Of a DNA stretch of 64,000 nucleotides, positions 2,727-61,796 are shown piece by piece. The stretch comes from Balanoglossus misakiensis (Eukaryota > Animalia > Hemichordata). The translations under genes and the position numbers were made by a program. The DNA is taken from assembly GCA_040954595.2 (NCBI GenBank), contig JBECUI020000029.1, positions 186,001-250,000 of the forward strand. Direction: 5' to 3'. The notes under the pieces were generated by a model. It saw nothing but the letters and a program-made list of their open reading frames with translations, did no database searches and was not told where the DNA came from. Each line of letters begins with the position of its first letter. The first letter of the stretch is position 1.

Positions 2727-4530
2727 AGTACAGTTCCACGTGCATTCCTGGCCCTGGTTTTATTTATGTTTACAGACAATATTGCATTTTTGTACAAGTA
2801 TTTTAATCAACTATAAATTTTGAATGTGTCATTTACCTGAACCGGTCATGTTGACCAGAATGATACATTTCTGCCTTCACTCACCCTATAAATATGTGAT
2901 TGAGACATAGGTCATTTGCATAAGCTAACATACCAGAAAGTAAGCATATCTGTTGTTTTCCCTGTGTCACTGCCATCAAAGTAAAAATTAGACGTTGTGT
3001 AGAGCAAACTCCAATTTTTTGTTCTCAATAAACATGGATGAATTACATAGAATGTGTTTGTTGTTTACAGTCTTTAAATGACACATTAGATTATGCACTT
3101 TACAAAACGTTTCTGAGAAACAAGTGACTAACTAGTTTCTTTCCACTGTGGCCAACGTGGTTCACTGTTTGTGTCAGAATCTCTCTGTTTTGCAAGGATT
3201 TTGAAATCATAGTGGTGACATGCATAGTGAAAATCAGCTACTTTCAAATGTCCGTCATGTTCATGCTGTAATTGAATTTTCAAAGCTGGGCTGGCGTGTT
3301 TTTTCTTATTTACATAAGTATCACACTTTATACATGTATCTTCATGGGGTTTTTTGAGTCCCGTATTTAGGTCCTCTCTCACAATTTTACGAAATATCGT
3401 ATAACTGACAGTTGTTCTTCCCAGAAGAGATTGGTTGGTTATGAACTCTCGGTGTAACTGCGATATACTGTGGGCCGGCGCCAGGTACGGTTTAAATCGA
3501 GGATTCCTGCAGTAGTGAGATTCTACAATTCTGTGCCTGCGTACGTGTTCAGTGATATCAGTCAGCAAATTTGGATTGAGTTTCCGACGATGCCCTTTGT
3601 GTCGGCCCCTTGCATCTGGCATCAGACCAGTAAAGTTCCATGTGCATTCCTGGCCCTGGTTTTATTTATGTTTACAGACAATATTGCATTTTTGTACAAG
3701 TATTTTAATCAACTATAAATTTTGAATGTGTCATTTACCTGAACCGGTCATGTTGACCAGAATGATACATTTCTGCCTTCACTCACCCTATAAATATGTG
3801 ATTGAGACATAGGTCATTTGCATAAGCTAACATACCAGAAAGTAAGCATATCTGATGTTTTCCCTGTGTCACTGCCATCAAAGTAAAAATTAGACGTTGT
3901 GTAGAGCAAACTCCAATTTTTTGTTCTCAATAAACATGGATGAATTACATAGAATGTGTTTGTTGTTTACAGTCTTTAAATGACACATTAGATTATGCAC
4001 TTTACAAAACGTTTCTGAGAAACAAGTGACTAACTAGTTTCTTTCCACTGTGGCCAACGTGGTTCACTGTTTGTGTCAGAATCTCTCTGTTTTGCAAGGA
4101 TTTTGAAATCATAGTGGTGACATGCATAGTGAAAATCAGCTACTTTCAAATGTCCGTCATGTTCATGCTGTAATTGAATTTTCAAAGCTGGGCTGGCGTG
4201 TTTTTTCTTATTTACATAAGTATCACACTTTATACATGTATCTTCATGGGGTTTTCTGAGTCCCGTATTTAGGTCCTCTCTCACAATTTTACGAAATATC
4301 GTATAACTGACAGTTGTTCTTCCCAGAAGAGATTGGTTGGTTATGAACTCTCGGTGTAACTGCGATATACTGTGGTCCGGCGCCAGGTACGGTTTAAATC
4401 GAGGATTCCTGCAGTAGTGAGATTCTACAATTCTGTGCCTGCGTACGTGTTCAGTGATATCAGTCAGCAAATTTGGATTGAGTTTCCGACGATGCCCTTT
4501 GTGTCGGCCCCTTGCATCTGGCATCAGACC
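2727..4530. repeat. 902-bp direct tandem duplication (2727-3628 / 3629-4530)
   Basis: ORF stops at 3128 and 4030 are 902 bp apart. The copies differ by only a few SNPs (APAH/APDH, GLKK/GLRK). The junction atcagaccAGTaaagttcca uses AGT microhomology. Confidence 0.95.
3128..3628 (-). pseudogene. 5'-truncated duplicate of the transposase N-half gene (last ~165 codons)
   Basis: Matches the C-terminal part of the 4030-4986 ORF apart from two amino-acid changes. Its 5' part and promoter are missing. Confidence 0.85.
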
Positions 4531-4986
4531 AGTTGAACAGTGCATCATTTTGCTTAGAACGGTTCTAGTCCGCCTCTCACTAATGCCAAATAATTTCAGG
4601 AATGCATTTTTGCAGACAGTAACCGTTTCACCGCCTTCATTCACCAGGTGATAACGAACCGATTTCTTGTGTGACTTCATCTGCATATCCATCAGTTTGT
4701 AGAGCATCAAGTTCTGTTCATTATACACGCGACCATCAAAATATTTTCTCGTGGTGCCTAAAACATGCGTACTCCCAAGCTTCCGCAGACAATTCCCTTG
4801 AACGCAGGCGCATTCCAAGGAAAGACTGTCAATATCTGGAAAAGGGCGATTTTTCCTTGGTTTTTGTCTCGGACACGTCTTTTTAGAATTCCTACGTGGC
4901 TTGTTGGCTCGAGCTGACAGTTCGGTTCTGCGTTGCTGCCACACAGGAATGGGTTCCCACGCATAAGCAACTCCCCGGCAGGCCAT
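4030..4986 (-). CDS. Sola1-like transposase N-terminal half (Cys/His zinc-binding and DNA-binding region), standalone ~318 aa protein
   Basis: Motifs VCKNAFLKLFGIS, DARGRH, ESHYCR..YL....SI, VSY..FR, P..DTC..CD and H..H...A occur in the order seen in Sola1-type transposase N-termini. First ATG is at 4986 (the track starts at GTG 4992). Minus-strand AATAAA at 3661-3666. Confidence 0.8.
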   Translation of the reverse strand: MACRGVAYAWEPIPVWQQRRTELSARANKPRRNSKKTCPRQKPRKNRPFPDIDSLSLECACVQGNCLRKLGSTHVLGTTRKYFDGRVYNEQNLMLYKLMDMQMKSHKKSVRYHLVNEGGETVTVCKNAFLKLFGISERRTRTVLSKMMHCSTGLMPDARGRHKGHRRKLNPNLLTDITEHVRRHRIVESHYCRNPRFKPYLAPDHSISQLHREFITNQSLLGRTTVSYTIFRKIVREDLNTGLRKPHEDTCIKCDTYVNKKKHASPALKIQLQHEHDGHLKVADFHYACHHYDFKILAKQRDSDTNSEPRWPQWKETS

Positions 4987-5033
4987 GGTCACAGCTGAAG
5001 TATTTGTTCAAGTACTGACTGACTAAACGCGGC

Positions 5034-6167
5034 ATGGAACAAACGAACGAACGACTTCACGTTCGGAAAAAAAATCGTTGCGAGCTGTTGGGTGCATGCC
5101 TCTATAGTTGTCGGCAACCGTTCTTTTTTATTGCTAAACAATGCTGTCAGAGCATGGAAGGTGTGGTGGAAAACGAACAGAGGTTTTGTACGACCAACGA
5201 TTGGATGGTGCTACATATGGACTTCCACAAGTCATTGCCGGTTCCTAAACTCAGCTCTGAAGACTTTTACTTTAAATCGAAATTGCAAATGAAGCTCCTT
5301 GGAATTTACAACGGGACAACGGAAAAGATGCATTGTTATGTATGGACAGAGCTCGATAGCAGAAAGTCTCCCGATGAAGTTATTACCTGTCTAAATCACT
5401 TTTTTTATAACTCGGGTGTGACCAGCAGACATGCAGTTATTTACAGCGACAACTGCCGTGCCGAATTCAAGTGTGGGAAGTTAATGTTTTACTATGACTA
5501 TCTGTTACGAAAGGGCGTGTTTCGACGAATTGACTATAAAACTCTTGTGGCTGGACACACGTACTCCACCTGTGACCGAGTTTTTGCGTCCATTGAAAGG
5601 CATGCAAGTCGTTTCCAGAGTATAGAGACACCTCACGATTGGACATCTGTGATTCGAGGATCTTCTCTGAATGGGAACATTGGAGTTACGGAGATGACTC
5701 ACAGAGACTTTTTCAATTATTCTGATTTCCTGAAAAATGAGTACGTTGTGCGTTATGCAGATACAAACAATGTAACTTTTTACTACCAAGCCATGCACTA
5801 TTTTAATTTTGGAGAAGGAGAAAGGCTTGATACCGACGGCAACCTCAGAACATTTAGTCATGCAGATAAAGTTTGGGTGAGAACATCTCTAGATCCAAGC
5901 GAGACCCCGATTGTAGTCGACTTTAGAAAGAAGAAGCAGAACCGGCGTTTACAAGATTGTACGCTGAACAAACTTTATCAGGAACGTCGACCACTGGCGA
6001 GCAAAGTTTGGCGGGATCTTCAGAGTTTAGCCAAAAATTACCTGTCTCCGGAGGCAATAGAATTTTATAGGAATCTACCGCTTCAGGAGAGTAGTGGCAC
6101 CTCTGCAGACCCGTACGCCTTTCATGATGATGACGACGACGATGATGATGATATGGGCGGTGGTTGA
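5034..6167 (+). CDS. Sola1-like transposase catalytic (RNase H-fold DDD) half with acidic tail; start may be ATG 5154
   Basis: MDFHKSLPVP (cf. DLQxxLPxP), FYFKSKL, CYVWTE, EVITCL, YSDNC (cf. SDxCxGQNKN) and GHTYSTCDRVFASIE. All three candidate catalytic Asp residues are present. Poly-Asp tail. AATAAA overlaps the stop codon. Confidence 0.85.
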   Translation: MEQTNERLHVRKKNRCELLGACLYSCRQPFFFIAKQCCQSMEGVVENEQRFCTTNDWMVLHMDFHKSLPVPKLSSEDFYFKSKLQMKLLGIYNGTTEKMHCYVWTELDSRKSPDEVITCLNHFFYNSGVTSRHAVIYSDNCRAEFKCGKLMFYYDYLLRKGVFRRIDYKTLVAGHTYSTCDRVFASIERHASRFQSIETPHDWTSVIRGSSLNGNIGVTEMTHRDFFNYSDFLKNEYVVRYADTNNVTFYYQAMHYFNFGEGERLDTDGNLRTFSHADKVWVRTSLDPSETPIVVDFRKKKQNRRLQDCTLNKLYQERRPLASKVWRDLQSLAKNYLSPEAIEFYRNLPLQESSGTSADPYAFHDDDDDDDDDMGGG

Positions 6168-6172
6168 ATAAA
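6167..6172 (+). terminator. Polyadenylation signal AATAAA overlapping the stop codon of the catalytic-half gene
   Basis: TGAATAAA at 6165-6172, followed by T/GT-rich sequence. Confidence 0.55.
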
Positions 6173-6328
6173 CTGTCCTTTTCATGACGACAGTGATTTT
6201 GGATATTTGATGTGCGTGCACAGTTTATATGTAATATTTTCACACGAACGAGTTTTGACTGAATTTGATTAAAGAATGTACTCGATAATTAACAAATGTG
6301 CTGAATCGTGGTTATTATGTTGTTAATT

Positions 6329-6368
6329 TTTGTTTGTTTGTTTGTTTGTTTGTTTGTTTGTTTGTTTG
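6329..6368. repeat. (TTTG)n microsatellite, ~10 units
   Basis: Seen directly. Confidence 0.95.
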
Positions 6369-6501
6369 TAAACAATTTCCGTTCATTCAACTGGCTACAA
6401 AGTTGGATTTTTGTACTGGGAAGCGATAAACTCGCACATCAAAACCGGGGAGACTCGATCATTTTTCCCTGCAGGTAGCCTGAAAAGCACCCGGGCAGAG
6501 A

Positions 6502-6575
6502 TTACGTCATATATGGTCCACTTTAATACGAAATTATGCAAATGTGACATTTCACGGAAACGGCGTATATAAAAG
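6502..6575 (+). promoter_or_regulatory. Putative Pol II promoter of the winged-helix-SET gene (CRE-like site, octamer, TATA)
   Basis: TTACGTCA at 6502-6509, ATGCAAAT at 6536-6543, TATATAAAAG at 6566-6575, about 90 bp upstream of ATG 6667 (aacATGg Kozak context). Confidence 0.55.
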
Positions 6576-6666
6576 CGACCCTGGGCTATTGTTCGGAATG
6601 CGTCATCGACGAGAGAGTGACTGATAATTCTTCTACCTCGAGTCAACCATTCTGTATATACTGAAC

Positions 6667-8007
6667 ATGGCTAGCTGGCGCAGGAAGAGACAAGGCAATG
6701 TGCGGTCTGTAATCAACGAACGGCACCGCTCAGTTCAGTGTCCCTTTCTTCAAAAGTGGATCGGTGAGCAATTGGTATTTTCAGGTCGTTCAGAGGATGA
6801 AGTCCAGTCCAGTACTGTATTTGAGAGCTACAAATGTTGGGTTGAAAACTATTCGTCGGCGGACAATCAAGTAATGATTATGGTTACTAAAGCTCGATTT
6901 TTCAAGGTGAGAATGATCGCATTTTTCTTTCCCCCCCCCCCCTCCCTCCCTCCCTCCCTCCCCCAAGGGACTCGTTTTCTGTCTCTTTTAAACCTGTAAC
7001 TTAACGAAAAGGAAGTTTTTCACATATCTCTTCGTTGACACTATAGCAATTTGGAGCGCGGATGCTTCAAGAGAAGAGCGTTACCAAATCAAAGTCGGCC
7101 GGGGTTAATATTTATAGAGGTGTTCGTCTGAAAGCTGGTTCGCGAAGAATCTCAACGGGGAAACCTGAGCACAGTGTACTTCAGACCAGGGCAAGGGCAT
7201 TTCTTGATGACGCCAGCGTGACCGTTCCGATCGAGGTAAGAATGGTGTTTTGTTTGGACTAGGACAATAGAACGTTGCAATGAGTGTGTCAATGGGTGTC
7301 CAAGTGCAAACGTGGTCTGCTTCTGTCCACAAATGCCATTAATTTTTGGCAGGATTTATAAAATTGTCAATGAAGAATACAAAAATGAAAAACAACAGTT
7401 AATAGCAAACTGGTAGGATTGCAAGGGCTTGTAAAACGGTACACACTGTACCAGGAAGTTTGCAACACTAATGAAGAATGTATATGATATATTTAGGTGA
7501 GAACTGTTCGCGATCGCCGGGACGCAGGACGGTGCGCGTTTTCGACGAGGGATATTCAAGCCTGGGACGTCGTCTGCGAATACCGGGGCACGGTTATTAG
7601 CGTTGAAGAAGCTAGTCGGCGTGATGAGCTTTACAGGGCAGAGGGGAAACGACCACGCATGTTCCATCTCTACATTGGAAAGAGACACGTTGTGTGAGTG
7701 TATCACTTAGTCGAATATATGGTCATATATTGCAAAGCATCTGTCGAAATAGAAAACGTAATATTGTCTATATTTTCCTCATTAACGCAGCATTGACGGA
7801 TACGATGTCCCAGCCGGTGAAGAAAATTTAGCAGGCCTAATAAATCACAGTCAGCAGAACGCCAACTTGGTACCGGTTCGGATCGGAGAGCGCCTGGTTT
7901 TCTTTGCAACCAGGAATCTTTGTCAGGGAGTAGAGCTTTTGTATGATTACGGTGACGGGGGTGAAGAGGATTTCTTCAGTGGTTCTCAAACTTTTCCTGA
8001 AAATTAA
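6667..8007 (+). CDS. Four-exon winged-helix + SET-domain protein (PR-Set7/SETD8-like lysine methyltransferase), 280 aa; join(6667..6906,7047..7235,7497..7693,7791..8007)
   Basis: All three introns are GT-AG (gtgaga..ctatag, gtaaga..atttag, gtgagt..acgcag) and the 843-nt splice is open. SET motifs: AGRCAFSTRDI, VCEYRG.VIS.EEA.RR..LY, IDG, GLINHS and ELLYDYGD. The N-terminal FLQKWI..VFESYKCW..RFFKQFG..IYRGVRLK resembles D5-primase C-terminal/RFX-type winged helices. Confidence 0.85.
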
Positions 8008-8913
8008 GGCATTAACACATCAACGCTTCGGGGTGTCGTAACGGCGGCGCGGCGGGGGGGGGGGGGGGGACGTGAAAATGTTTGTATCAGGAACAAAATT
8101 CCCGTGCAAATCACCTTGATCCGGGTGGGTGGACTATTCGCGACAAATGTTGAAATCATACAAAGCATTTTACTTAATTAACCCATTTTTTTCATTTATT
8201 TGTTTACAGTTTACAACGTCATAGAGAAGTTGAACTAGAGACTGGATCAGCGTGGGTGACACCATAGTACACCAATGTTTTCTTCAGTTTGATTCAATTG
8301 TAATTTAAAACTGAGATTGCCTAACGCTTTCCCAGATTTTTTTAACCACTGAGAAACTGTGGGTTTTTTTCTGGGTTTTGGTGCGAGGTGATCTCAGTCA
8401 GTGGTGTTAATTTAATTAATCATTTTCTTTTCCTATTTACGTCGACTGAAATGTATTTTGATAGGTGATAGTCATACCATAAAAAAAATCTTACGGCGCG
8501 ACTGCCAAAATGTACATTTATTTGTCCGTTCCAAGTTATTTTGTGTATGTGTGATGGGTGCCGGTGACTGTGCAGGGTTGATTTCCCTAGAGCGACTGTT
8601 ATATTCGTTTTCCAACGATGATGAATTTACATGTTATTTGCTTGGCATTTTGACGCAGAGACACTTCTGAAAACACAAACCTATTAATTATGCCACGGGT
8701 GTAAATTGATCACATTAAAAGAGGCTTTAGACGTTTGCCGCGAGCTCCTGGTGGGCAGAATCTTGTCAGCCCAAATTTGACTATAAGTACATAGCCAATG
8801 ATGTGACGCTCTCCCACATCCTTCGCCGCGCCTTTTCGCTGATTTACAGCATCTTGCGTAAACACTGTCATTTGATCTTGCTTGGCAGAAGTCAACTTGC
8901 TCTATACTACATT

Positions 8914-9279
8914 ATGGCGGCCAAGCTCAACTGCATATCAGATAATGCCAAGGAGCGTTTGAGAGGCATCCTCGCCAGAAGGAGTCGCGTTTCCGGTGAC
9001 TGTGTGCTCTGGACGGGTGCAGCTTGTCGAAACGGCTATGGCTCTATTACGTTCAGAGATGAGAACACTCTAACCGCCTATGTCCATCACATTGCACTCC
9101 TAATTAACGGAGTGCAATTGGTGGGCAGGCGGTTAGAGTGTTCTCATCTTTGCAACGAAAAGCTATGCATCCGCCCAGAGCACATTGTCCAGGAAACGCG
9201 ACTCCTAAACATTTCACGAAAGACGTGCTTTAAATCCCCAAAAGGGGAGTGTCACCACGATCCCAGGTGCCTAAGGTGA
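8914..9279 (+). CDS. His-Cys box / His-Me finger (I-PpoI-like zinc-binding loop) endonuclease, ~121 aa
   Basis: CVLWTG...NGYG, YVHH, SHLCNEKLCIRPEH...E...N.SR..C.....C.HDPRC. ATG 8914 has a good Kozak context (attATGg); the track's GTG start at 8803 is less likely. A possible splice donor GTGAGT at 9276 overlaps the stop. Confidence 0.85.
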   Translation: MAAKLNCISDNAKERLRGILARRSRVSGDCVLWTGAACRNGYGSITFRDENTLTAYVHHIALLINGVQLVGRRLECSHLCNEKLCIRPEHIVQETRLLNISRKTCFKSPKGECHHDPRCLR

Positions 9280-9547
9280 GTAATCCTCTTCTCATTTGAT
9301 ATGTATTGTGTGACCCTGCAGTTGAAACGCTTTCATCAATAATTTGCGGCGCGTGGGTAATCTCGGTGTTATTGACAATGCAGCCGGCCCAAACATTTTT
9401 AAATTAACACTGTTTCTGACTGTATTAACGAAATGTCCAATTTGCAAGTAGCCTATAGACAACCCTTTTGAATGAGTTTTGTCTCGTTGAGATTTTATAC
9501 ATAAGGAACAATCTAGATTTATTTTAGAAGACACTGTTCTTTTAAAA

Positions 9548-9945
9548 CAGCTAGCATAATACAGCTAAATTTCGGAATTTCCGGACAATTTTCGGAATTC
9601 CTTTTAAATTTGAGAAATTTTTCATCAGATATAAGTGTTACTATTTATTGGACATGTTTTTATCATTGTTTACTTTTTAAGGTCATTCTCACCCCCCCCC
9701 CCCCAAAAAAAGCCGCTTTAGGCTTCATGTTCAGTAAAAAATCTGGAAAGTTCAGCTGAATTTTACACTGATCACACATTTTTGGGAAGGTCTGGCGCAA
9801 AATAAAGGATGACAAATGTAAATCTAATGTCACATTTGTAAACCTCTAAGTATTGTACACTCATTCTATTAAGTATATGCAAATAGTACGGATAATTTTT
9901 TCGGAATGTGGAATTCCGAAATTAGTTCGGAACGTGTTAGCAGTG
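9548..9945. mobile_element. Possible degenerate MITE
   Basis: Left cagctagca...ctaaatttcggaatttcc and right ggaattccgaaattag...tgttagcagtg form an imperfect inverted pair. No TSD was confirmed. Confidence 0.3.
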
Positions 9946-10256
9946 AAGAGATCACCACTGAGGGTTGGAAGGCCTTGCCAGAAATTAACGCGTAAAGTAC
10001 GCCCTCACAGGCCATGTAAACAAGGTCAAATAAGGCCGTCTGGCAAACGAATGATTAATTCAACGCGCCATTTGAGCCGAGCTGAGTTGGTCTGAGTTGC
10101 GTATCACACAGACTTAGGCTGAATGTCAGTGGAGTAACCAGTCCGTTTTAGATTTACCAATGATGTGAATTTAATTTCTTCACCCAGAAAAACAGAACAC
10201 AACTTGTCTGCAACATGATGCTGGAGGTGACACATGACAGAGAAGTGGATCCGCGT

Positions 10257-10590
10257 TGTCAACACAGATGCCAGCATTCAAAAGGGGAGTGCCACCTGCT
10301 AAAATCAACTCATCTGCTGTTGGCCCATTTTACCTGTGGCAACTGTTCAGAGGAGACAACGTTTATTCCGTGCAAGCCAACACGCAATGTTGGGGTCTAC
10401 CTGTCAACACAGATGCAAGCATTCATGTGAGTGAGTATCAGGACTGACCTTGTATTTGCTGAATAATTCATAATGCCTATTTTAGAATTCTTAGAGGCAT
10501 TTGGAGTTCATTGCCTGGTCAACCAAACTACACCCCTTAACAGCTGAAACAAAATGCGTATTGTGTTCATTCATTCATTGCATCAATATA
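10257..10590 (+). repeat. Diverged, insert-free homolog of the array monomer inside the cassette
   Basis: Colinear blocks shared with the monomer: cacctg.t.aaat.aactcatctgctgt, gtggca, gaggaga, acagatgc.agcattcat, gagtgagt, tgcctatt.tagaattctta and ttcattcattcattgc.tcaatatat. Confidence 0.85.
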
Positions 10591-10898
10591 TATAGGCAAC
10601 ATGAGTATCAAGTAGCACTATTTGTTTACGATTGTATTCATGAAAACTTCCCACTAACAATTCCACAGTTAATATTGAACACATTTATCCAACAAGGTCA
10701 AAAGAAAAAGGGAATCTTCTGGTTCCAAAATACGCCACAAATGTGGGTCAACATACAGTGAAATATTATGGTGCTCAAATATGCAACATATCAAATCTGT
10801 CTCATCAAAGTCATGCTTTAAAAAAGAATTGAAAAGGTATTATTTATCCATTTGACTGCTGTATTTTCAGAAGGAAAACAAACTGAATTTGGTTTTTC

Positions 10899-13800
10899 AA
10901 GTACCTTATATTTTCTGTAAAATAGACATTTAATTGGCAAGCCGTCCTGCATCAATTATTAATTGTGTACATGCACTAAAGCGCCCTCACTGCTGGGTGT
11001 GTTGTATGGTCTTTAACCCTGTTTCAAATTAGAGTACTTTCTGCAATTTCAAGACAGATCTTACGTGCCATTGGAGAGCTCCATTGACTGGTCATTCATA
11101 CTGTTTTCATTCATTCATTGCGGCATCAATATATTTTATCTATTCTAGCCAAAGAGCTTGGCACCTGTTGAAATGAACTCATCTGCTGTGGGCCAGTTTA
11201 TTGGTGGCAGTTGAGCTGAGGAGAGCACCTTCCTTCCCGGCACGCCACCAAGTAAAGTTCCACGCCGCCCACCACAGATGCCAGCATTCATTCATGCGAG
11301 TGAGTGTAATTGCAAATTTGCCTATTCTAGATCTGTAATGGAAATGGAGAAAGTACCTTATATTTTCTGTAAAATAGACATTTAATTGGCAAGCCGTCCT
11401 GCATCAATTATTAATTGTGTACATGCACTAAAGCGCCCTCACTGCTGGGTGTGTTGTATGGTCTTTAACCCTGTTTCAAATTAGAGTACTTTCTGCAATT
11501 TCAAGACAGATCTTACGTGCCATTGGAGAGCTCCATTGACTGGTCATTCATACTGTTTTCATTCATTCATTGCGGCATCAATATATTTTATCTATTCTAG
11601 CCAAAGAGCTTGGCACCTGTTGAAATGAACTCATCTGCTGTGGGCCAGTTTATTGGTGGCAGTTGAGCTGAGGAGAGCACCTTCCTTCCCGGCACGCCAC
11701 CAAGTAAAGTTCCACGCCGCCCACCACAGATGCCAGCATTCATTCATGCGAGTGAGTGTAATTGCAAATTTGCCTATTCTAGATCTGTAATGGAAATGGA
11801 GAAAGTACCTTATATTTTCTGTAAAATAGACATTTAATTGGCAAGCCGTCCTGCATCAATTATTAATTGTGTACATGCACTAAAGCGCCCTCACTGCTGG
11901 GTGTGTTGTATGGTCTTTAACCCTGTTTCAAATTAGAGTACTTTCTGCAATTTCAAGACAGATCTTACGTGCCATTGGAGAGCTCCATTGACTGGTCATT
12001 CATACTGTTTTCATTCATTCATTGCGGCATCAATATATTTTATCTATTCTAGCCAAAGAGCTTGGCACCTGTTGAAATGAACTCATCTGCTGTGGGCCAG
12101 TTTATTGGTGGCAGTTGAGCTGAGGAGAGCACCTTCCTTCCCGGCACGCCACCAAGTAAAGTTCCACGCCGCCCACCACAGATGCCAGCATTCATTCATG
12201 CGAGTGAGTGTAATTGCAAATTTGCCTATTCTAGATCTGTAATGGAAATGGAGAAAGTACCTTATATTTTCTGTAAAATAGACATTTAATTGGCAAGCCG
12301 TCCTGCATCAATTATTAATTGTGTACATGCACTAAAGCGCCCTCACTGCTGGGTGTGTTGTATGGTCTTTAACCCTGTTTCAAATTAGAGTACTTTCTGC
12401 AATTTCAAGACAGATCTTACGTGCCATTGGAGAGCTCCATTGACTGGTCATTCATACTGTTTTCATTCATTCATTGCGGCATCAATATATTTTATCTATT
12501 CTAGCCAAAGAGCTTGGCACCTGTTGAAATGAACTCATCTGCTGTGGGCCAGTTTATTGGTGGCAGTTGAGCTGAGGAGAGCACCTTCTTTCCCGGCACG
12601 CCACCAAGTAAAGTTCCACGCCGCCCACCACAGATGCCAGCATTCATTCATGCGAGTGAGTGTAATTGCAAATTTGCCTATTCTAGATCTGTAATGGAAA
12701 TGGAGAAAGTACCTTATATTTTCTGTAAAATAGACATTTAATTGGCAAGCCGTCCTGCATCAATTATTAATTGTGTACATGCACTAAAGCGCCCTCACTG
12801 CTGGGTGTGTTGTATGGTCTTTAACCCTGTTTCAAATTAGAGTACTTTCTGCAATTTCAAGACAGATCTTACGTGCCATTGGAGAGCTCCATTGACTGGT
12901 CATTCATACTGTTTTCATTCATTCATTGCGGCATCAATATATTTTATCTATTCTAGCCAAAGAGCTTGGCACCTGTTGAAATGAACTCATCTGCTGTGGG
13001 CCAGTTTATTGGTGGCAGTTGAGCTGAGGAGAGCACCTTCCTTCCCGGCACGCCACCAAGTAAAGTTCCACGCCGCCCACCACAGATGCCAGCATTCATT
13101 CATGCGAGTGAGTGTAATTGCAAATTTGCCTATTCTAGATCTGTAATGGAAATGGAGAAAGTACCTTATATTTTCTGTAAAATAGACATTTAATTGGCAA
13201 GCCGTCCTGCATCAATTATTAATTGTGTACATGCACTAAAGCGCCCTCACTGCTGGGTGTGTTGTATGGTCTTTAACCCTGTTTCAAATTAGAGTACTTT
13301 CTGCAATTTCAAGACAGATCTTACGTGCCATTGGAGAGCTCCATTGACTGGTCATTCATACTGTTTTCATTCATTCATTGCGGCATCAATATATTTTATC
13401 TATTCTAGCCAAAGAGCTTGGCACCTGTTGAAATGAACTCATCTGCTGTGGGCCAGTTTATTGGTGGCAGTTGAGCTGAGGAGAGCACCTTCCTTCCCGG
13501 CACGCCACCAAGTAAAGTTCCACGCCGCCCACCACAGATGCCAGCATTCATTCATGCGAGTGAGTGTAATTGCAAATTTGCCTATTCTAGAATTCTTACG
13601 TGCCATTGGAGAGCTCCATTGACTGGTCATTCATACTGTTTTCATTCATTCATTGCGGCATCAATATATTTTATCTATTCTAGCCAAAGAGCTTGGCACC
13701 TGTTGAAATGAACTCATCTGCTGTGGGCCAGTTTATTGGTGGCAGTTGAGCTGAGGAGAGCACCTTCCTTCCCGGCACGCCACCAAGTAAAGTTCCACGC

Positions 13801-49800: not shown

Positions 49801-52800
49801 GCTGAGGAGAGCACCTTCCTTCCCGGCACGCCACCAAGTAAAGTTCCACGCCGCCCACCACAGATGCCAGCATTCATTCATGCGAGTGAGTGTAATTGCA
49901 AATTTGCCTATTCTAGAATCTTACGTGCCATTGGAGAGCTCCATTGACTGGTCATTCATACTGTTTTCATTCATTCATTGCGGCATCAATATATTTTATC
50001 TATTCTAGCCGAAGAGCTTGGCACCTGTTGAAATGAACTCATCTGCTGTGGGCCAGTTTATTGGTGGCAGTTGAGCTGAGGAGAGCACCTTCCTTCCCGG
50101 CACGCCACCAAGTAAAGTTCCACGCCGCCCACCACAGATGCCAGCATTCATTCATGCGAGTGAGTGTAATTGCAAATTTGCCTATTCTAGATCTGTAATG
50201 GAAATGGAGAAAGTACCTTATATTTTCTGTAAAATAGACATTTAATTGGCAAGCCGTCCTGCATCAATTATTAATTGTGTACATGCACTAAAGCGCCCTC
50301 ACTGCTGGGTGTGTTGTATGGTCTTTAACCCTGTTTCAAATTAGAGTACTTTCTGCAATTTCAAGACAGATCTTACGTGCCATTGGAGAGCTCCATTGAC
50401 TGGTCATTCATACTGTTTTCATTCATTCATTGCGGCATCAATATATTTTATCTATTCTAGCCAAAGAGCTTGGCACCTGTTGAAATGAACTCATCTGCTG
50501 TGGGCCAGTTTATTGGTGGCAGTTGAGCTGAGGAGAGCACCTTCCTTCCCGGCACGCCACCAAGTAAAGTTCCACGCCGCCCACCACAGATGCCAGCATT
50601 CATTCATGCGAGTGAGTGTAATTGCAAATTTGCCTATTCTAGATTCTTACGTGCCATTGGAGAGCTCCATTGACTGGTCATTCATACTGTTTTCATTCAT
50701 TCATTGCGGCATCAATATATTTTATCTATTCTAGCCAAAGAGCTTGGCACCTGTTGAAATGAACTCATCTGCTGTGGGCCAGTTTATTGGTGGCAGTTGA
50801 GCTGAGGAGAGCACCTTCCTTCCCGGCACGCCACCAAGTAAAGTTCCACGCCGCCCACCACAGATGCCAGCATTCATTCATGCGAGTGAGTGTAATTGCA
50901 AATTTGCCTATTCTAGAATCTTACGTGCCATTGGAGAGCTCCATTGACTGGTCATTCATACTGTTTTCATTCATTCATTGCGGCATCAATATATTTTATC
51001 TATTCTAGCCAAAGAGCTTGGCACCTGTTGAAATGAACTCATCTGCTGTGGGCCAGTTTATTGGTGGCAGTTGAGCTGAGGAGAGCACCTTCCTTCCCGG
51101 CACGCCACCAAGTAAAGTTCCACGCCGCCCACCACAGATGCCAGCATTCATTCATGCGAGTGAGTGTAATTGCAAATTTGCCTATTCTAGATCTGTAATG
51201 GAAATGGAGAAAGTACCTTATATTTTCTGTAAAATAGACATTTAATTGGCAAGCCGTCCTGCATCAATTATTAATTGTGTACATGCACTAAAGCGCCCTC
51301 ACTGCTGGGTGTGTTGTATGGTCTTTAACCCTGTTTCAAATTAGAGTACTTTCTGCAATTTCAAGACAGATCTTACGTGCCATTGGAGAGCTCCATTGAC
51401 TGGTCATTCATACTGTTTTCATTCATTCATTGCGGCATCAATATATTTTATCTATTCTAGCCAAAGAGCTTGGCACCTGTTGAAATGAACTCATCTGCTG
51501 TGGGCCAGTTTATTGGTGGCAGTTGAGCTGAGGAGAGCACCTTCCTTCCCGGCACGCCACCAAGTAAAGTTCCACGCCGCCCACCACAGATGCCAGCATT
51601 CATTCATGCGAGTGAGTGTAATTGCAAATTTGCCTATTCTAGATCTGTAATGGAAATGGAGAAAGTACCTTATATTTTCTGTAAAATAGACATTTAATTG
51701 GCAAGCCGTCCTGCATCAATTATTAATTGTGTACATGCACTAAAGCGCCCTCACTGCTGGGTGTGTTGTATGGTCTTTAACCCTGTTTCAAATTAGAGTA
51801 CTTTCTGCAATTTCAAGACAGATCTTACGTGCCATTGGAGAGCTCCATTGACTGGTCATTCATACTGTTTTCATTCATTCATTGCGGCATCAATATATTT
51901 TATCTATTCTAGCCAAAGAGCTTGGCACCTGTTGAAATGAACTCATCTGCTGTGGGCCAGTTTATTGGTGGCAGTTGAGCTGAGGAGAGCACCTTCCTTC
52001 CCGGCACGCCACCAAGTAAAGTTCCACGCCGCCCACCACAGATGCCAGCATTCATTCATGCGAGTGAGTGTAATTGCAAATTTGCCTATTCTAGATCTGT
52101 AATGGAAATGGAGAAAGTACCTTATATTTTCTGTAAAATAGACATTTAATTGGCAAGCCGTCCTGCATCAATTATTAATTGTGTACATGCACTAAAGCGC
52201 CCTCACTGCTGGGTGTGTTGTATGGTCTTTAACCCTGTTTCAAATTAGAGTACTTTCTGCAATTTCAAGACAGATCTTACGTGCCATTGGAGAGCTCCAT
52301 TGACTGGTCATTCATACTGTTTTCATTCATTCATTGCGGCATCAATATATTTTATCTATTCTAGCCAAAGAGCTTGGCACCTGTTGAAATGAACTCATCT
52401 GCTGTGGGCCAGTTTATTGGTGGCAGTTGAGCTGAGGAGAGCACCTTCCTTCCCGGCACGCCACCAAGTAAAGTTCCACGCCGCCCACCACAGATGCCAG
52501 CATTCATTCATGCGAGTGAGTGTAATTGCAAATTTGCCTATTCTAGATCTGTAATGGAAATGGAGAAAGTACCTTATATTTTCTGTAAAATAGACATTTA
52601 ATTGGCAAGCCGTCCTGCATCAATTATTAATTGTGTACATGCACTAAAGCGCCCTCACTGCTGGGTGTGTTGTATGGTCTTTAACCCTGTTTCAAATTAG
52701 AGTACTTTCTGCAATTTCAAGACAGATCTTACGTGCCATTGGAGAGCTCCATTGACTGGTCATTCATACTGTTTTCATTCATTCATTGCGGCATCAATAT

Positions 52801-55800
52801 ATTTTATCTATTCTAGCCAAAGAGCTTGGCACCTGTTGAAATGAACTCATCTGCTGTGGGCCAGTTTATTGGTGGCAGTTGAGCTGAGGAGAGCACCTTC
52901 CTTCCCGGCACGCCACCAAGTAAAGTTCCACGCCGCCCACCACAGATGCCAGCATTCATTCATGCGAGTGAGTGTAATTGCAAATTTGCCTATTCTAGAT
53001 CTGTAATGGAAATGGAGAAAGTACCTTATATTTTCTGTAAAATAGACATTTAATTGGCAAGCCGTCCTGCATCAATTATTAATTGTGTACATGCACTAAA
53101 GCGCCCTCACTGCTGGGTGTGTTGTATGGTCTTTAACCCTGTTTCAAATTAGAGTACTTTCTGCAATTTCAAGACAGATCTTACGTGCCATTGGAGAGCT
53201 CCATTGACTGGTCATTCATACTGTTTTCATTCATTCATTGCGGCATCAATATATTTTATCTATTCTAGCCAAAGAGCTTGGCACCTGTTGAAATGAACTC
53301 ATCTGCTGTGGGCCAGTTTATTGGTGGCAGTTGAGCTGAGGAGAGCACCTTCCTTCCCGGCACGCCACCAAGTAAAGTTCCACGCCGCCCACCACAGATG
53401 CCAGCATTCATTCATGCGAGTGAGTGTAATTGCAAATTTGCCTATTCTAGATCTGTAATGGAAATGGAGAAAGTACCTTATATTTTCTGTAAAATAGACA
53501 TTTAATTGGCAAGCCGTCCTGCATCAATTATTAATTGTGTACATGCACTAAAGCGCCCTCACTGCTGGGTGTGTTGTATGGTCTTTAACCCTGTTTCAAA
53601 TTAGAGTACTTTCTGCAATTTCAAGACAGATCTTACGTGCCATTGGAGAGCTCCATTGACTGGTCATTCATACTGTTTTCATTCATTCATTGCGGCATCA
53701 ATATATTTTATCTATTCTAGCCAAAGAGCTTGGCACCTGTTGAAATGAACTCATCTGCTGTGGGCCAGTTTATTGGTGGCAGTTGAGCTGAGGAGAGCAC
53801 CTTCTTTCCCGGCACGCCACCAAGTAAAGTTCCACGCCGCCCACCACAGATGCCAGCATTCATTCATGCGAGTGAGTGTAATTGCAAATTTGCCTATTTA
53901 CGTGCCATTGGAGAGCTCCATTGACTGGTCATTCATACTGTTTTCATTCATTCATTGCGGCATCAATATATTTTATCTATTCTAGCCAAAGAGCTTGGCA
54001 CCTGTTGAAATGAACTCATCTGCTGTGGGCCAGTTTATTGGTGGCAGTTGAGCTGAGGAGAGCACCTTCCTTCCCGGCACGCCACCAAGTAAAGTTCCAC
54101 GCCGCCCACCACAGATGCCAGCATTCATTCATGCGAGTGAGTGTAATTGCAAATTTGCCTATTCTAGATCTGTAATGGAAATGGAGAAAGTACCTTATAT
54201 TTTCTGTAAAATAGACATTTAATTGGCAAGCCGTCCTGCATCAATTATTAATTGTGTACATGCACTAAAGCGCCCTCACTGCTGGGTGTGTTGTATGGTC
54301 TTTAACCCTGTTTCAAATTAGAGTACTTTCTGCAATTTCAAGACAGATCTTACGTGCCATTGGAGAGCTCCATTGACTGGTCATTCATACTGTTTTCATT
54401 CATTCATTGCGGCATCAATATATTTTATCTATTCTAGCCAAAGAGCTTGGCACCTGTTGAAATGAACTCATCTGCTGTGGGCCAGTTTATTGGTGGCAGT
54501 TGAGCTGAGGAGAGCACCTTCCTTCCCGGCACGCCACCAAGTAAAGTTCCACGCCGCCCACCACAGATGCCAGCATTCATTCATGCGAGTGAGTGTAATT
54601 GCAAATTTGCCTATTCTAGAATTCTTACGTGCCATTGGAGAGCTCCATTGACTGGTCATTCATACTGTTTTCATTCATTCATTGCGGCATCAATATATTT
54701 TATCTATTCTAGCCAAAGAGCTTGGCACCTGTTGAAATGAACTCATCTGCTGTGGGCCAGTTTATTGGTGGCAGTTGAGCTGAGGAGAGCACCTTCCTTC
54801 CCGGCACGCCACCAAGTAAAGTTCCACGCCGCCCACCACAGATGCCAGCATTCATTCATGCGAGTGAGTGTAATTGCAAATTTGCCTATTCTAGATCTGT
54901 AATGGAAATGGAGAAAGTACCTTATATTTTCTGTAAAATAGACATTTAATTGGCAAGCCGTCCTGCATCAATTATTAATTGTGTACATGCACTAAAGCGC
55001 CCTCACTGCTGGGTGTGTTGTATGGTCTTTAACCCTGTTTCAAATTAGAGTACTTTCTGCAATTTCAAGACAGATCTTACGTGCCATTGGAGAGCTCCAT
55101 TGACTGGTCATTCATACTGTTTTCATTCATTCATTGCGGCATCAATATATTTTATCTATTCTAGCCAAAGAGCTTGGCACCTGTTGAAATGAACTCATCT
55201 GCTGTGGGCCAGTTTATTGGTGGCAGTTGAGCTGAGGAGAGCACCTTCTTTCCCGGCACGCCACCAAGTAAAGTTCCACGCCGCCCACCACAGATGCCAG
55301 CATTCATTCATGCGAGTGAGTGTAATTGCAAATTTGCCTATTCTAGAATCTTACGTGCCATTGGAGAGCTCCATTGACTGGTCATTCATACTGTTTTCAT
55401 TCATTCATTGCGGCATCAATATATTTTATCTATTCTAGCCAAAGAGCTTGGCACCTGTTGAAATGAACTCATCTGCTGTGGGCCAGTTTATTGGTGGCAG
55501 TTGAGCTGAGGAGAGCACCTTCTTTCCCGGCACGCCACCAAGTAAAGTTCCACGCCGCCCACCACAGATGCCAGCATTCATTCATGCGAGTGAGTGTAAT
55601 TGCAAATTTGCCTATTTACGTGCCATTGGAGAGCTCCATTGACTGGTCATTCATACTGTTTTCATTCATTCATTGCGGCATCAATATATTTTATCTATTC
55701 TAGCCAAAGAGCTTGGCACCTGTTGAAATGAACTCATCTGCTGTGGGCCAGTTTATTGGTGGCAGTTGAGCTGAGGAGAGCACCTTCCTTCCCGGCACGC

Positions 55801-58800
55801 CACCAAGTAAAGTTCCACGCCGCCCACCACAGATGCCAGCATTCATTCATGCGAGTGAGTGTAATTGCAAATTTGCCTATTCTAGATCTGTAATGGAAAT
55901 GGAGAAAGTACCTTATATTTTCTGTAAAATAGACATTTAATTGGCAAGCCGTCCTGCATCAATTATTAATTGTGTACATGCACTAAAGCGCCCTCACTGC
56001 TGGGTGTGTTGTATGGTCTTTAACCCTGTTTCAAATTAGAGTACTTTCTGCAATTTCAAGACAGATCTTACGTGCCATTGGAGAGCTCCATTGACTGGTC
56101 ATTCATACTGTTTTCATTCATTCATTGCGGCATCAATATATTTTATCTATTCTAGCCAAAGAGCTTGGCACCTGTTGAAATGAACTCATCTGCTGTGGGC
56201 CAGTTTATTGGTGGCAGTTGAGCTGAGGAGAGCACCTTCTTTCCCGGCACGCCACCAAGTAAAGTTCCACGCCGCCCACCACAGATGCCAGCATTCATTC
56301 ATGCGAGTGAGTGTAATTGCAAATTTGCCTATTCTAGAATCTTACGTGCCATTGGAGAGCTCCATTGACTGGTCATTCATACTGTTTTCATTCATTCATT
56401 GCGGCATCAATATATTTTATCTATTCTAGCCAAAGAGCTTGGCACCTGTTGAAATGAACTCATCTGCTGTGGGCCAGTTTATTGGTGGCAGTTGAGCTGA
56501 GGAGAGCACCTTCTTTCCCGGCACGCCACCAAGTAAAGTTCCACGCCGCCCACCACAGATGCCAGCATTCATTCATGCGAGTGAGTGTAATTGCAAATTT
56601 GCCTATTCTAGAATCTTACGTGCCATTGGAGAGCTCCATTGACTGGTCATTCATACTGTTTTCATTCATTCATTGCGGCATCAATATATTTTATCTATTC
56701 TAGCCAAAGAGCTTGGCACCTGTTGAAATGAACTCATCTGCTGTGGGCCAGTTTATTGGTGGCAGTTGAGCTGAGGAGAGCACCTTCCTTCCCGGCACGC
56801 CACCAAGTAAAGTTCCACGCCGCCCACCACAGATGCCAGCATTCATTCATGCGAGTGAGTGTAATTGCAAATTTGCCTATTCTAGAATCTTACGTGCCAT
56901 TGGAGAGCTCCATTGACTGGTCATTCATACTGTTTTCATTCATTCATTGCGGCATCAATATATTTTATCTATTCTAGCCAAAGAGCTTGGCACCTGTTGA
57001 AATGAACTCATCTGCTGTGGGCCAGTTTATTGGTGGCAGTTGAGCTGAGGAGAGCACCTTCCTTCCCGGCACGCCACCAAGTAAAGTTCCACGCCGCCCA
57101 CCACAGATGCCAGCATTCATTCATGCGAGTGAGTGTAATTGCAAATTTGCCTATTCTAGAATCTTACGTGCCATTGGAGAGCTCCATTGACTGGTCATTC
57201 ATACTGTTTTCATTCATTCATTGCGGCATCAATATATTTTATCTATTCTAGCCGAAGAGCTTGGCACCTGTTGAAATGAACTCATCTGCTGTGGGCCAGT
57301 TTATTGGTGGCAGTTGAGCTGAGGAGAGCACCTTCCTTCCCGGCACGCCACCAAGTAAAGTTCCACGCCGCCCACCACAGATGCCAGCATTCATTCATGC
57401 GAGTGAGTGTAATTGCAAATTTGCCTATTCTAGATCTGTAATGGAAATGGAGAAAGTACCTTATATTTTCTGTAAAATAGACATTTAATTGGCAAGCCGT
57501 CCTGCATCAATTATTAATTGTGTACATGCACTAAAGCGCCCTCACTGCTGGGTGTGTTGTATGGTCTTTAACCCTGTTTCAAATTAGAGTACTTTCTGCA
57601 ATTTCAAGACAGATCTTACGTGCCATTGGAGAGCTCCATTGACTGGTCATTCATACTGTTTTCATTCATTCATTGCGGCATCAATATATTTTATCTATTC
57701 TAGCCAAAGAGCTTGGCACCTGTTGAAATGAACTCATCTGCTGTGGGCCAGTTTATTGGTGGCAGTTGAGCTGAGGAGAGCACCTTCCTTCCCGGCACGC
57801 CACCAAGTAAAGTTCCACGCCGCCCACCACAGATGCCAGCATTCATTCATGCGAGTGAGTGTAATTGCAAATTTGCCTATTCTAGATTCTTACGTGCCAT
57901 TGGAGAGCTCCATTGACTGGTCATTCATACTGTTTTCATTCATTCATTGCGGCATCAATATATTTTATCTATTCTAGCCAAAGAGCTTGGCACCTGTTGA
58001 AATGAACTCATCTGCTGTGGGCCAGTTTATTGGTGGCAGTTGAGCTGAGGAGAGCACCTTCCTTCCCGGCACGCCACCAAGTAAAGTTCCACGCCGCCCA
58101 CCACAGATGCCAGCATTCATTCATGCGAGTGAGTGTAATTGCAAATTTGCCTATTCTAGAATCTTACGTGCCATTGGAGAGCTCCATTGACTGGTCATTC
58201 ATACTGTTTTCATTCATTCATTGCGGCATCAATATATTTTATCTATTCTAGCCAAAGAGCTTGGCACCTGTTGAAATGAACTCATCTGCTGTGGGCCAGT
58301 TTATTGGTGGCAGTTGAGCTGAGGAGAGCACCTTCCTTCCCGGCACGCCACCAAGTAAAGTTCCACGCCGCCCACCACAGATGCCAGCATTCATTCATGC
58401 GAGTGAGTGTAATTGCAAATTTGCCTATTCTAGATCTGTAATGGAAATGGAGAAAGTACCTTATATTTTCTGTAAAATAGACATTTAATTGGCAAGCCGT
58501 CCTGCATCAATTATTAATTGTGTACATGCACTAAAGCGCCCTCACTGCTGGGTGTGTTGTATGGTCTTTAACCCTGTTTCAAATTAGAGTACTTTCTGCA
58601 ATTTCAAGACAGATCTTACGTGCCATTGGAGAGCTCCATTGACTGGTCATTCATACTGTTTTCATTCATTCATTGCGGCATCAATATATTTTATCTATTC
58701 TAGCCAAAGAGCTTGGCACCTGTTGAAATGAACTCATCTGCTGTGGGCCAGTTTATTGGTGGCAGTTGAGCTGAGGAGAGCACCTTCCTTCCCGGCACGC

Positions 58801-61796
58801 CACCAAGTAAAGTTCCACGCCGCCCACCACAGATGCCAGCATTCATTCATGCGAGTGAGTGTAATTGCAAATTTGCCTATTCTAGATCTGTAATGGAAAT
58901 GGAGAAAGTACCTTATATTTTCTGTAAAATAGACATTTAATTGGCAAGCCGTCCTGCATCAATTATTAATTGTGTACATGCACTAAAGCGCCCTCACTGC
59001 TGGGTGTGTTGTATGGTCTTTAACCCTGTTTCAAATTAGAGTACTTTCTGCAATTTCAAGACAGATCTTACGTGCCATTGGAGAGCTCCATTGACTGGTC
59101 ATTCATACTGTTTTCATTCATTCATTGCGGCATCAATATATTTTATCTATTCTAGCCAAAGAGCTTGGCACCTGTTGAAATGAACTCATCTGCTGTGGGC
59201 CAGTTTATTGGTGGCAGTTGAGCTGAGGAGAGCACCTTCCTTCCCGGCACGCCACCAAGTAAAGTTCCACGCCGCCCACCACAGATGCCAGCATTCATTC
59301 ATGCGAGTGAGTGTAATTGCAAATTTGCCTATTCTAGATCTGTAATGGAAATGGAGAAAGTACCTTATATTTTCTGTAAAATAGACATTTAATTGGCAAG
59401 CCGTCCTGCATCAATTATTAATTGTGTACATGCACTAAAGCGCCCTCACTGCTGGGTGTGTTGTATGGTCTTTAACCCTGTTTCAAATTAGAGTACTTTC
59501 TGCAATTTCAAGACAGATCTTACGTGCCATTGGAGAGCTCCATTGACTGGTCATTCATACTGTTTTCATTCATTCATTGCGGCATCAATATATTTTATCT
59601 ATTCTAGCCAAAGAGCTTGGCACCTGTTGAAATGAACTCATCTGCTGTGGGCCAGTTTATTGGTGGCAGTTGAGCTGAGGAGAGCACCTTCCTTCCCGGC
59701 ACGCCACCAAGTAAAGTTCCACGCCGCCCACCACAGATGCCAGCATTCATTCATGCGAGTGAGTGTAATTGCAAATTTGCCTATTCTAGATCTGTAATGG
59801 AAATGGAGAAAGTACCTTATATTTTCTGTAAAATAGACATTTAATTGGCAAGCCGTCCTGCATCAATTATTAATTGTGTACATGCACTAAAGCGCCCTCA
59901 CTGCTGGGTGTGTTGTATGGTCTTTAACCCTGTTTCAAATTAGAGTACTTTCTGCAATTTCAAGACAGATCTTACGTGCCATTGGAGAGCTCCATTGACT
60001 GGTCATTCATACTGTTTTCATTCATTCATTGCGGCATCAATATATTTTATCTATTCTAGCCAAAGAGCTTGGCACCTGTTGAAATGAACTCATCTGCTGT
60101 GGGCCAGTTTATTGGTGGCAGTTGAGCTGAGGAGAGCACCTTCCTTCCCGGCACGCCACCAAGTAAAGTTCCACGCCGCCCACCACAGATGCCAGCATTC
60201 ATTCATGCGAGTGAGTGTAATTGCAAATTTGCCTATTCTAGATCTGTAATGGAAATGGAGAAAGTACCTTATATTTTCTGTAAAATAGACATTTAATTGG
60301 CAAGCCGTCCTGCATCAATTATTAATTGTGTACATGCACTAAAGCGCCCTCACTGCTGGGTGTGTTGTATGGTCTTTAACCCTGTTTCAAATTAGAGTAC
60401 TTTCTGCAATTTCAAGACAGATCTTACGTGCCATTGGAGAGCTCCATTGACTGGTCATTCATACTGTTTTCATTCATTCATTGCGGCATCAATATATTTT
60501 ATCTATTCTAGCCAAAGAGCTTGGCACCTGTTGAAATGAACTCATCTGCTGTGGGCCAGTTTATTGGTGGCAGTTGAGCTGAGGAGAGCACCTTCCTTCC
60601 CGGCACGCCACCAAGTAAAGTTCCACGCCGCCCACCACAGATGCCAGCATTCATTCATGCGAGTGAGTGTAATTGCAAATTTGCCTATTCTAGATCTGTA
60701 ATGGAAATGGAGAAAGTACCTTATATTTTCTGTAAAATAGACATTTAATTGGCAAGCCGTCCTGCATCAATTATTAATTGTGTACATGCACTAAAGCGCC
60801 CTCACTGCTGGGTGTGTTGTATGGTCTTTAACCCTGTTTCAAATTAGAGTACTTTCTGCAATTTCAAGACAGATCTTACGTGCCATTGGAGAGCTCCATT
60901 GACTGGTCATTCATACTGTTTTCATTCATTCATTGCGGCATCAATATATTTTATCTATTCTAGCCAAAGAGCTTGGCACCTGTTGAAATGAACTCATCTG
61001 CTGTGGGCCAGTTTATTGGTGGCAGTTGAGCTGAGGAGAGCACCTTCTTTCCCGGCACGCCACCAAGTAAAGTTCCACGCCGCCCACCACAGATGCCAGC
61101 ATTCATTCATGCGAGTGAGTGTAATTGCAAATTTGCCTATTTACGTGCCATTGGAGAGCTCCATTGACTGGTCATTCATACTGTTTTCATTCATTCATTG
61201 CGGCATCAATATATTTTATCTATTCTAGCCAAAGAGCTTGGCACCTGTTGAAATGAACTCATCTGCTGTGGGCCAGTTTATTGGTGGCAGTTGAGCTGAG
61301 GAGAGCACCTTCCTTCCCGGCACGCCACCAAGTAAAGTTCCACGCCGCCCACCACAGATGCCAGCATTCATTCATGCGAGTGAGTGTAATTGCAAATTTG
61401 CCTATTCTAGATCTGTAATGGAAATGGAGAAAGTACCTTATATTTTCTGTAAAATAGACATTTAATTGGCAAGCCGTCCTGCATCAATTATTAATTGTGT
61501 ACATGCACTAAAGCGCCCTCACTGCTGGGTGTGTTGTATGGTCTTTAACCCTGTTTCAAATTAGAGTACTTTCTGCAATTTCAAGACAGATCTTACGTGC
61601 CATTGGAGAGCTCCATTGACTGGTCATTCATACTGTTTTCATTCATTCATTGCGGCATCAATATATTTTATCTATTCTAGCCAAAGAGCTTGGCACCTGT
61701 TGAAATGAACTCATCTGCTGTGGGCCAGTTTATTGGTGGCAGTTGAGCTGAGGAGAGCACCTTCCTTCCCGGCACGCCACCAAGTAAAGTTCCACG
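10899..61796. repeat. ~50.9-kb tandem array, ~140 full monomers (452/274/275/265 bp) with a 7,243-bp 20-monomer HOR
   Basis: Monomer sizes were read from ORF-track spacing and the sequence. The 275-bp marker monomers (ORF coordinates 13439, 20682, 28925, 34812, 42055, 47225, 54468) are spaced 7243, 8243, 5887, 7243, 5170 and 7243 bp apart. Confidence 0.98.

Follow-up and report, generated by a model that had tools for sequence, protein, structure and literature searches.

KolobokP elements pair a DDD/E transposase of the Kolobok superfamily with a His-Me nuclease of the I-PpoI group (Kojima and Bao 2022, PMC9587614, in excerpt). Their body is flanked by long terminal direct repeats (LTDRs) of ~450 or ~660 bp that carry short terminal inverted repeats (TIRs) of their own, and target site duplications (TSDs) lie at the outer ends of multimers, for which nuclease-induced unequal crossover has been proposed; I-PpoI cuts semi-palindromes, leaving 4-nt TTAA overhangs (same excerpts of PMC9587614). 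Known Sola1 elements have a single open reading frame (ORF; 630 aa in PMC3845634), TIRs and a 4-bp AWWT duplication, and HarbingerS and oomycete MuDR families carry SET genes, read as anti-silencing cargo (PMC12730594, in excerpt). Here we analyse a cassette of four genes (A to D) in a satellite array of the hemichordate Balanoglossus misakiensis, within a stretch of 64,000 nucleotides (contig JBECUI020000029.1, positions 186,001 to 250,000 of the forward strand) that we call the window. The cassette, which encodes a split transposase, a SET protein and a His-Cys box nuclease, works most like KolobokP but fails membership there, as it does for Sola1 and HarbingerS. We see about an even chance that it is the interior of an undescribed DNA transposon with several genes, whose ends were lost in the satellite and which is copied with the array as a macro-repeat of ~59 kb.

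The likeness to KolobokP, as far as the excerpts of its description go, lies in the pairing of a DDD/E transposase with an I-PpoI-group nuclease (gene D is similar by eye to the nucleases of its Data S4), in repeats of ~450 bp, in tandem multimers and in the excision of TIR-bounded sub-units. However, the cassette transposase is split and of the DUF7869 type, not Kolobok; TIRs bound a 177-bp sub-unit rather than the 452-bp monomer, and the cassette interrupts a monomer; ~141 monomers stand here against one LTDR between bodies in those excerpts; a SET gene is added; and the consulted text of PMC9587614 makes no mention of a hairpin, stem-loop or secondary structure. With Sola1, a tentative label for this family, the locus shares proteins of the DUF7869 type (~610–690 aa) that are tiled by A and B together and have the same three acidic motifs, but its transposase genes are two and divergent, ends are lacking and further genes are present. 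HarbingerS and the oomycete MuDR families, in the excerpts seen, are likewise DNA transposons carrying a SET gene, whereas their transposases belong to other superfamilies (no Harbinger Pfam family was matched by A or B) and the SET domain here, in which Gly replaces the arginine that binds S-adenosylmethionine (SAM), is joined to a likely D5-type winged helix. An earlier annotation from the bare sequence (the sequence-only reading) had put the locus forward as a candidate undescribed system, and the present results agree: literature searches, with Repbase, Dfam and Repbase Reports outside their scope, found no description of the gene set, the split transposase or the hairpin.

The cassette recurs with its array and lacks transposon ends

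The four-gene cassette occupies 2741–10898 (8,158 bp, no strand assigned) within the satellite array, where it displaces 86 bp of one 452-bp monomer, and all four genes are open. The segment 2613–4944 is repeated at 61669–64000, offset by 59,056 bp and with 3 differences in 2,332 bp, and both cassette copies begin at the identical monomer junction. The second copy (61797–64000, no strand assigned) continues past the window end, so that only its left ~2.2 kb could be compared and the 3' part of gene A is the only gene portion seen twice. These data bear out the ~8.2-kb cassette with four intact genes recurring 59,056 bp further on that the sequence-only reading had described. A 902-bp tandem duplicate of the 3' half of gene A and its 3' flank (2727–3631, minus strand), with 5 differences and no start codon, straddles the left cassette junction. 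As it is found in both window copies, and at doubled contig depth, it must predate the spread of the macro-repeat. The sequence-only reading had overlooked this duplicate, as well as the fold-back in gene D, the Arg-to-Gly change in the SET motif and a foldback MITE at 2189–2612.

The right end of the cassette is joined through a 6-bp microhomology inside the left TIR of a 177-bp miniature inverted-repeat transposable element (MITE), and part of that TIR is destroyed. Two contigs of X1, which together with X2 makes up two short-read runs from one sample, possibly the assembly's own source, run on from this junction point, at 10904, into non-array DNA. No TIR linking the cassette ends was present among the 25 of 42 inverted pairs inspected, and neither a TSD nor, specifically, a 4-bp AWWT duplication was found at the junctions. 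The junctions are those of capture or truncation rather than of a clean insertion, and the suggestion that cassette and array form a giant transposon is not supported, with no bounding TIR or TSD and a TIR broken at the right junction. The idea of a self-building array of centromeric type is unsupported too.

The array itself (10899–61796, plus strand) comprises 141 monomer starts in 50,898 bp, the monomers measuring 452 bp when filled by the 177-bp unit and 274, 275 or 265 bp when empty, arranged in a near-identical higher-order pattern with 14-kb blocks that are 99.99% identical. This identity, together with the lack of any contig spanning the unit and the perhaps non-independent origin of X1 and X2, would be expected if the 59-kb recurrence or the array pattern were an artefact of assembly. 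We hold such an artefact to be very improbable, as 3 differences separate the two cassette copies, a foldback MITE stands ahead of the first copy only, and read-derived contigs contain the joints of empty sites, are twice as deep over the 902-bp duplicate and keep a high, flat depth across the cassette. In X1, cassette contigs are long and near-invariant, at depths of about 665–810 against 23–46 for low-depth contigs; this suggests about 17–30 near-identical cassettes if the low-depth contigs are single-copy, depth being a poor count of copies. Matching pieces in X3 and X4, considered as a possible second species, are short, mostly exact and of low depth, and were read as carry-over.

CpG observed/expected ratios are 0.84–0.99 in the four genes (3128–10898) and 0.47 in the array, which suggests that genes and array have had different methylation histories. 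The diverged copy of the array monomer that had been noticed inside the cassette is present (10268–10591, plus strand), with 71% identity to the array monomer over 151 nt (E 2e-14) and an alignment score of 211 against a maximum of 62 over 100 shuffles. Several diverged relatives of the monomer, at depths of 40–280, occur elsewhere in the genome (queried with 10279–10591), so that the satellite is part of a wider repeat family.

The transposase is split into two divergent genes

Gene A (4030–4986, minus strand, 318 aa) encodes the N-terminal half of a DUF7869-type transposase, Cys/His-rich and predicted to bind DNA, and gene B (5154–6167, plus strand, 337 aa), placed head-to-head with it, the catalytic half with an intact DDD triad. 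Gene B was assigned to DUF7869 by Pfam, and all three acidic motifs align with those of full-length relatives; Pfam gave no match for gene A. An additional in-frame ATG of gene B lies at 5034. The divergent starts are separated by 47 bp, counted to this first in-frame ATG, or by 167 bp (interval 4987–5153), and the spacer is a candidate for a very short bidirectional promoter.

Gene A was matched by 2,597 representatives at E 0.001. The best 6 of the 150 matches listed are proteins of 306–347 aa (E 2e-63 to 5e-30) with near end-to-end coverage and the same C-terminal stop, most of them with a common C-terminal tail, and a B-like region is also present in 77 of the 150. A quick tree was built from 44 of 151 rows, namely the top 14 by a profile of N-only proteins and 30 full-length proteins, the other 107 being excluded. 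In it, 12 N-only rows grouped apart from the 32 others with an SH-aLRT of 100; 4 of these 12 were absent from the profile, among them the shorter and possibly partial P0015. One N-only cluster includes a protein from the coral Oculina (XP_078355980). The members of one N-only cluster are several, some of them truncated and two of them located on a single 456-kb contig, which is the pattern expected from a transposable element. The cluster of P0011 includes two ENA contigs of 10,106 and 10,169 bp that encode the same N-half protein and that may be a complete element, in collapsed form, with a length of about 10 kb.

The search with gene B covered proteins of 185–590 aa, a range in which longer fused forms could not show up, and both of its matches are C-only, one of them from the acorn worm Saccoglossus (XP_002739486). 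Genes A and B together tile all 5 full-length relatives tried with an overlap of at most one residue, for example as residues 182–372 and 379–550 of 667 aa. The best match of A and the best match of B each lie on a Logan contig of 2,400 bp, probably one and the same contig, judging by the equal length. Given the N-only clade, the C-only proteins and the tiling of full-length transposases by the two halves, the split is, at the level of sequence comparison, judged to be old and conserved and not a recent break. A recent inversion that broke an ordinary transposase was considered as an alternative and excluded, since the split is common to a clade. Thus, the split transposase proposed earlier proved to consist of real halves, and the clade of 12 N-only rows and the C-only proteins strengthen it as an old trait.

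The predicted model of A has a pLDDT of 66 and no match in the Protein Data Bank (PDB) at E 0.001, and that of B (pLDDT 37) is unusable. Relatives of B were absent from viral contigs and metagenomes in scans for related loci, the alignment of the coral-type N-half had no match in viral contigs, and no relatives of A were found by word-index search.

The nuclease gene contains a long predicted hairpin

Gene D (8914–9279, plus strand, 121 aa) encodes a His-Cys box nuclease of the I-PpoI type that retains its catalytic His and Asn as well as the zinc ligands. It matches PF05551 at E 2e-13, and its best PDB match is I-PpoI, with catalytic His and Asn aligned. The analogy to KolobokP is thereby upheld for the nuclease, while the transposase differs; and the gene identities first proposed, transposase halves, SET protein and His-Me nuclease, agree with DUF7869 on B, SET on exons 3–4 of C and PF05551 on D.

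Three nested inverted repeats within the ORF of gene D make up a fold-back at 8980–9206 (no strand assigned; codons 23–98) with 97 predicted pairs, 90 Watson-Crick and 7 G-U, spanning the catalytic core of the nuclease. The hairpin scored z -14.7 against 100 dinucleotide shuffles and z -17 against 200 synonymous-codon shuffles, was the sole window below z -2 of the 25 tiled across the cassette, and also folds as DNA on the opposite strand (z -14.8). As controls, four HNH genes with similar motifs were taken from phage-like loci of a metagenome scan with D (26–35% identity); none of the four had such a fold (z -0.4 to +1.5), and therefore the motifs do not force a hairpin. One KolobokP nuclease gene contained no long perfect inverted repeat, a weak comparison made by eye. 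Sense/antisense double coding was rejected as a cause, as the antisense frame of D is not open.

Both hairpin arms retain conserved residues, which makes a single inverted duplication an unlikely source. We infer that the hairpin results from long-term selection or from repeated template switching filtered by selection, and we favour for it a putative role as a brake on nuclease expression. An ORF in which two conserved motif blocks are nearly reverse complements of each other is a rare overlap of constraints on protein and structure, and it points to a check on a toxic nuclease that is built into the gene itself.

Gene C encodes a probable winged helix fused to an altered SET domain

Gene C consists of four GT-AG exons (6667–8007, plus strand, 280 aa); spliceosomal introns and the named relatives fit an animal source, probably a marine invertebrate. 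Exons 1 and 2 (6667–6906 and 7047–7235) likely encode a Pox_D5-type winged helix and a linker, exon 1 resembling Pox_D5 winged-helix clusters with a language-model feature score of 0.97, although Pfam, PHROG and PDB sequence searches gave no winged-helix match. Exons 3 and 4 (7497–7693 and 7791–8007) were identified as a SET domain by Pfam. For the N-half of the domain (exon 3), KMT2C/D (MLL3/4) ranked slightly ahead of SETD8, all matches being weak, and exon 4 weakly matched a "protein with a SET domain" (4ldg) and SETD8.

The SAM-binding arginine (SETD8 R265/R295), four residues ahead of the motif His, is replaced by Gly (codon 7834–7836). Distant SET families can function without this arginine. 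In SETD8, R-to-G is the standard dead allele and blocks activity in vitro (PMC2373513; 10.1101/2022.01.30.478405, in excerpt), and it is only hypomorphic in flies (the same sources and PMC6450876, in excerpt). Diverged copies of exon 4 in the same genome differ from it mostly silently: 9 of the 13 listed differences, out of a table with 6 further rows, are synonymous against a neutral share of 0.235 (p 0.0006), which indicates that the protein has been under selection. From its sequence, C is likelier to be a chromatin binder, or a methyltransferase with weak or no activity. The H4K20me1 marking attributed to it by the sequence-only reading is therefore unsupported, as the SAM-binding arginine is a Gly and the N-half of the SET domain lies slightly nearer to MLL3/4 than to SETD8.

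The 177-bp unit has been excised repeatedly from the array

The inserts of the filled monomers are 177-bp MITEs (example at 11333–11509, no strand assigned) with CTGT...ACAG ends, TIRs matching at 21 of 28 positions and an AT duplication. In agreement with the description of monomers with and without a TIR-bounded insert, 74 of 145 junctions read were filled and 71 empty. The empty junctions fall into four classes, 44 AGA-A-TCT, 7 AGA-T-TCT, 7 AGA-AT-TCT and 13 with a larger deletion, and neither precise nor TSD-retaining empty sites occurred among the 145. As the classes lie mostly at fixed spots in the higher-order pattern, the 71 empty junctions reduce to about four events. The three short alleles correspond to loss or complement-replacement of the base adjacent to the element, and the empty junction is palindromic (AGAATTCT).

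The base-level footprint rule of flank-hairpin excision comes from work on Ac and Hermes. In hAT, MULE and Transib elements, excision proceeds by this chemistry (PMC5499845, in excerpt), and the empty sites are those that the opening and joining of flank hairpins would leave. However, this MITE has a 2-bp AT duplication and CTGT ends, and the window holds no transposase of these groups. The MITE was excised at least three or four times, likely by a flank-hairpin transposase with hAT/MULE/Transib-type chemistry. Two other schemes were discarded: none of the 274-bp forms yields the filled form by plain target duplication, as a direct pre-insertion site should, and Tc1-type footprints leave the AATT allele unexplained. 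Excision of TIR units thus appears real, given several distinct empty alleles at one junction. Their assignment to the cassette as its own units is not supported: in 2 contigs the left end of the MITE is preceded by an (AT)n tract instead, which marks it as a dispersed element, and its duplication is a 2-bp AT, not a 4-bp AWWT.

These junctions are also where an integrated, self-amplifying system would leave its traces. In such a system, A and B would excise the 177-bp units, D would cut the palindromic empty junction, and C would bind the array; the one-base-shorter and deleted alleles would be repair scars of D, whose breaks would drive array growth. Four alleles occur at the one palindromic junction compared with 6 single-base variants across the other 263 bp, the cleavage preference of I-PpoI given above (PMC9587614, in excerpt) fits such a site, all four genes are open, and the diverged monomer inside the cassette, being of the AATT form, implies that the link to the repeat family may be old. 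Nevertheless, the MITE is dispersed and duplicates AT instead of AWWT, the cassette junction destroys a TIR, the diverged monomer kin elsewhere mean that the internal copy may have been inserted independently, and SET catalysis is doubtful. On balance we regard this system as somewhat unlikely. Its fullest form would be a new kind of gene-plus-satellite unit, in which a megabase array is reshaped and enlarged by its own two-chain transposase and homing-type nuclease, a catalytically altered winged-helix/SET protein binds that array, and the nuclease is gated by its own hairpin RNA, one ORF being both nuclease and silencer; this we consider doubtful. If it were true, the nuclease-induced unequal crossover route to tandem arrays would become directly testable: the nuclease is small, a single palindromic site is the candidate target, and the junction alleles form a record. 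Even if it fails, there remain the naturally split DDD transposases, a deep clade of ready two-component enzymes whose split marks the domain boundary in a transposase family without a confident structural match here.

Origin of the cassette

Only one relative locus was obtained. This low-GC contig (L001, 4,965 bp), filed in a Microscillaceae metagenome-assembled genome, has at its end an N-half gene that belongs to the coral-type subclade, and the contig is likely a stray, that is, host contamination in a bacterial bin. A broken, apparently spliced divergent gene lies near 2100–2700 of this contig; it also has a 155-bp spacer between perfect 16-bp inverted repeats (2833–3019) and a 14-bp motif that recurs every ~179 bp (1273–1644).

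That the N-half of L001 has none of the other genes upstream, and that no relative ties D or C to A and B, would be natural if the split pair, the SET gene and the nuclease gene had separate origins and were gathered by chance at the array edge, there to be amplified passively; satellites are known to amplify trapped fragments. We judge this nesting unlikely. No internal TIR or TSD boundaries separate the genes (in the 25 of 42 inverted pairs inspected), the genes are tightly packed, all open and alike in their CpG ratios (0.84–0.99, array 0.47), and A and B each have their best match on a Logan contig of 2,400 bp, probably a shared one.

The transposon-body reading, to which we give about even weight, would work as follows. 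The enzyme would have two chains, A for DNA binding and B for cleavage. The transposon would have lost its ends inside the satellite; unequal crossing-over and gene conversion would then enlarge the resulting unit, with DNA breaks made by the His-Cys nuclease probably contributing, in the manner suggested for KolobokP multimers. The computed fold-back may throttle that nuclease, the double-stranded mRNA being diced, edited or left untranslated, and the SET protein may bind chromatin with weak or no methyltransferase activity. The 177-bp unit is a separate, dispersed MITE, likely excised by a flank-hairpin transposase, its link to A and B being conjectural.

Several observations weigh against this account or its parts. 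No intact element with ends was seen, so that the term transposon body rests on gene type. The label Sola1-like, taken from the FDLQ, SDxC and GHT motifs, is presumptive. There is no B, C or D in the 3.9 kb upstream of the N-half in L001, which means that the head-to-head layout is not universal, and the four genes were not seen together in a second species, with that one relative locus examined. Close relatives of D were absent from the word-index search, the viral contigs and the metagenomes, which yielded phage-like HNH loci only. The scarcity of G-U pairs in the hairpin (7 of 97) is as compatible with template switching at the DNA level as with selection on RNA, and one of the 13 listed exon-4 differences would be a stop. 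Finally, the diverged monomer of the cassette already has the AATT junction. Either that monomer lost an old insert by the same route, or AATT is the ancestral state and cutting at the palindrome left the other alleles as scars, which would implicate D.

A foldback MITE in the array flank

The foldback MITE mentioned above (2189–2612, 424 bp) is flanked by a TA duplication; its arms of 189 bp are perfect, and its ends read CAG...CTG. Rfam returned for it a match to a miRNA family only, below threshold. It sits in one monomer ahead of the first cassette only, and from its end features we take it to be Tc1/mariner-like.

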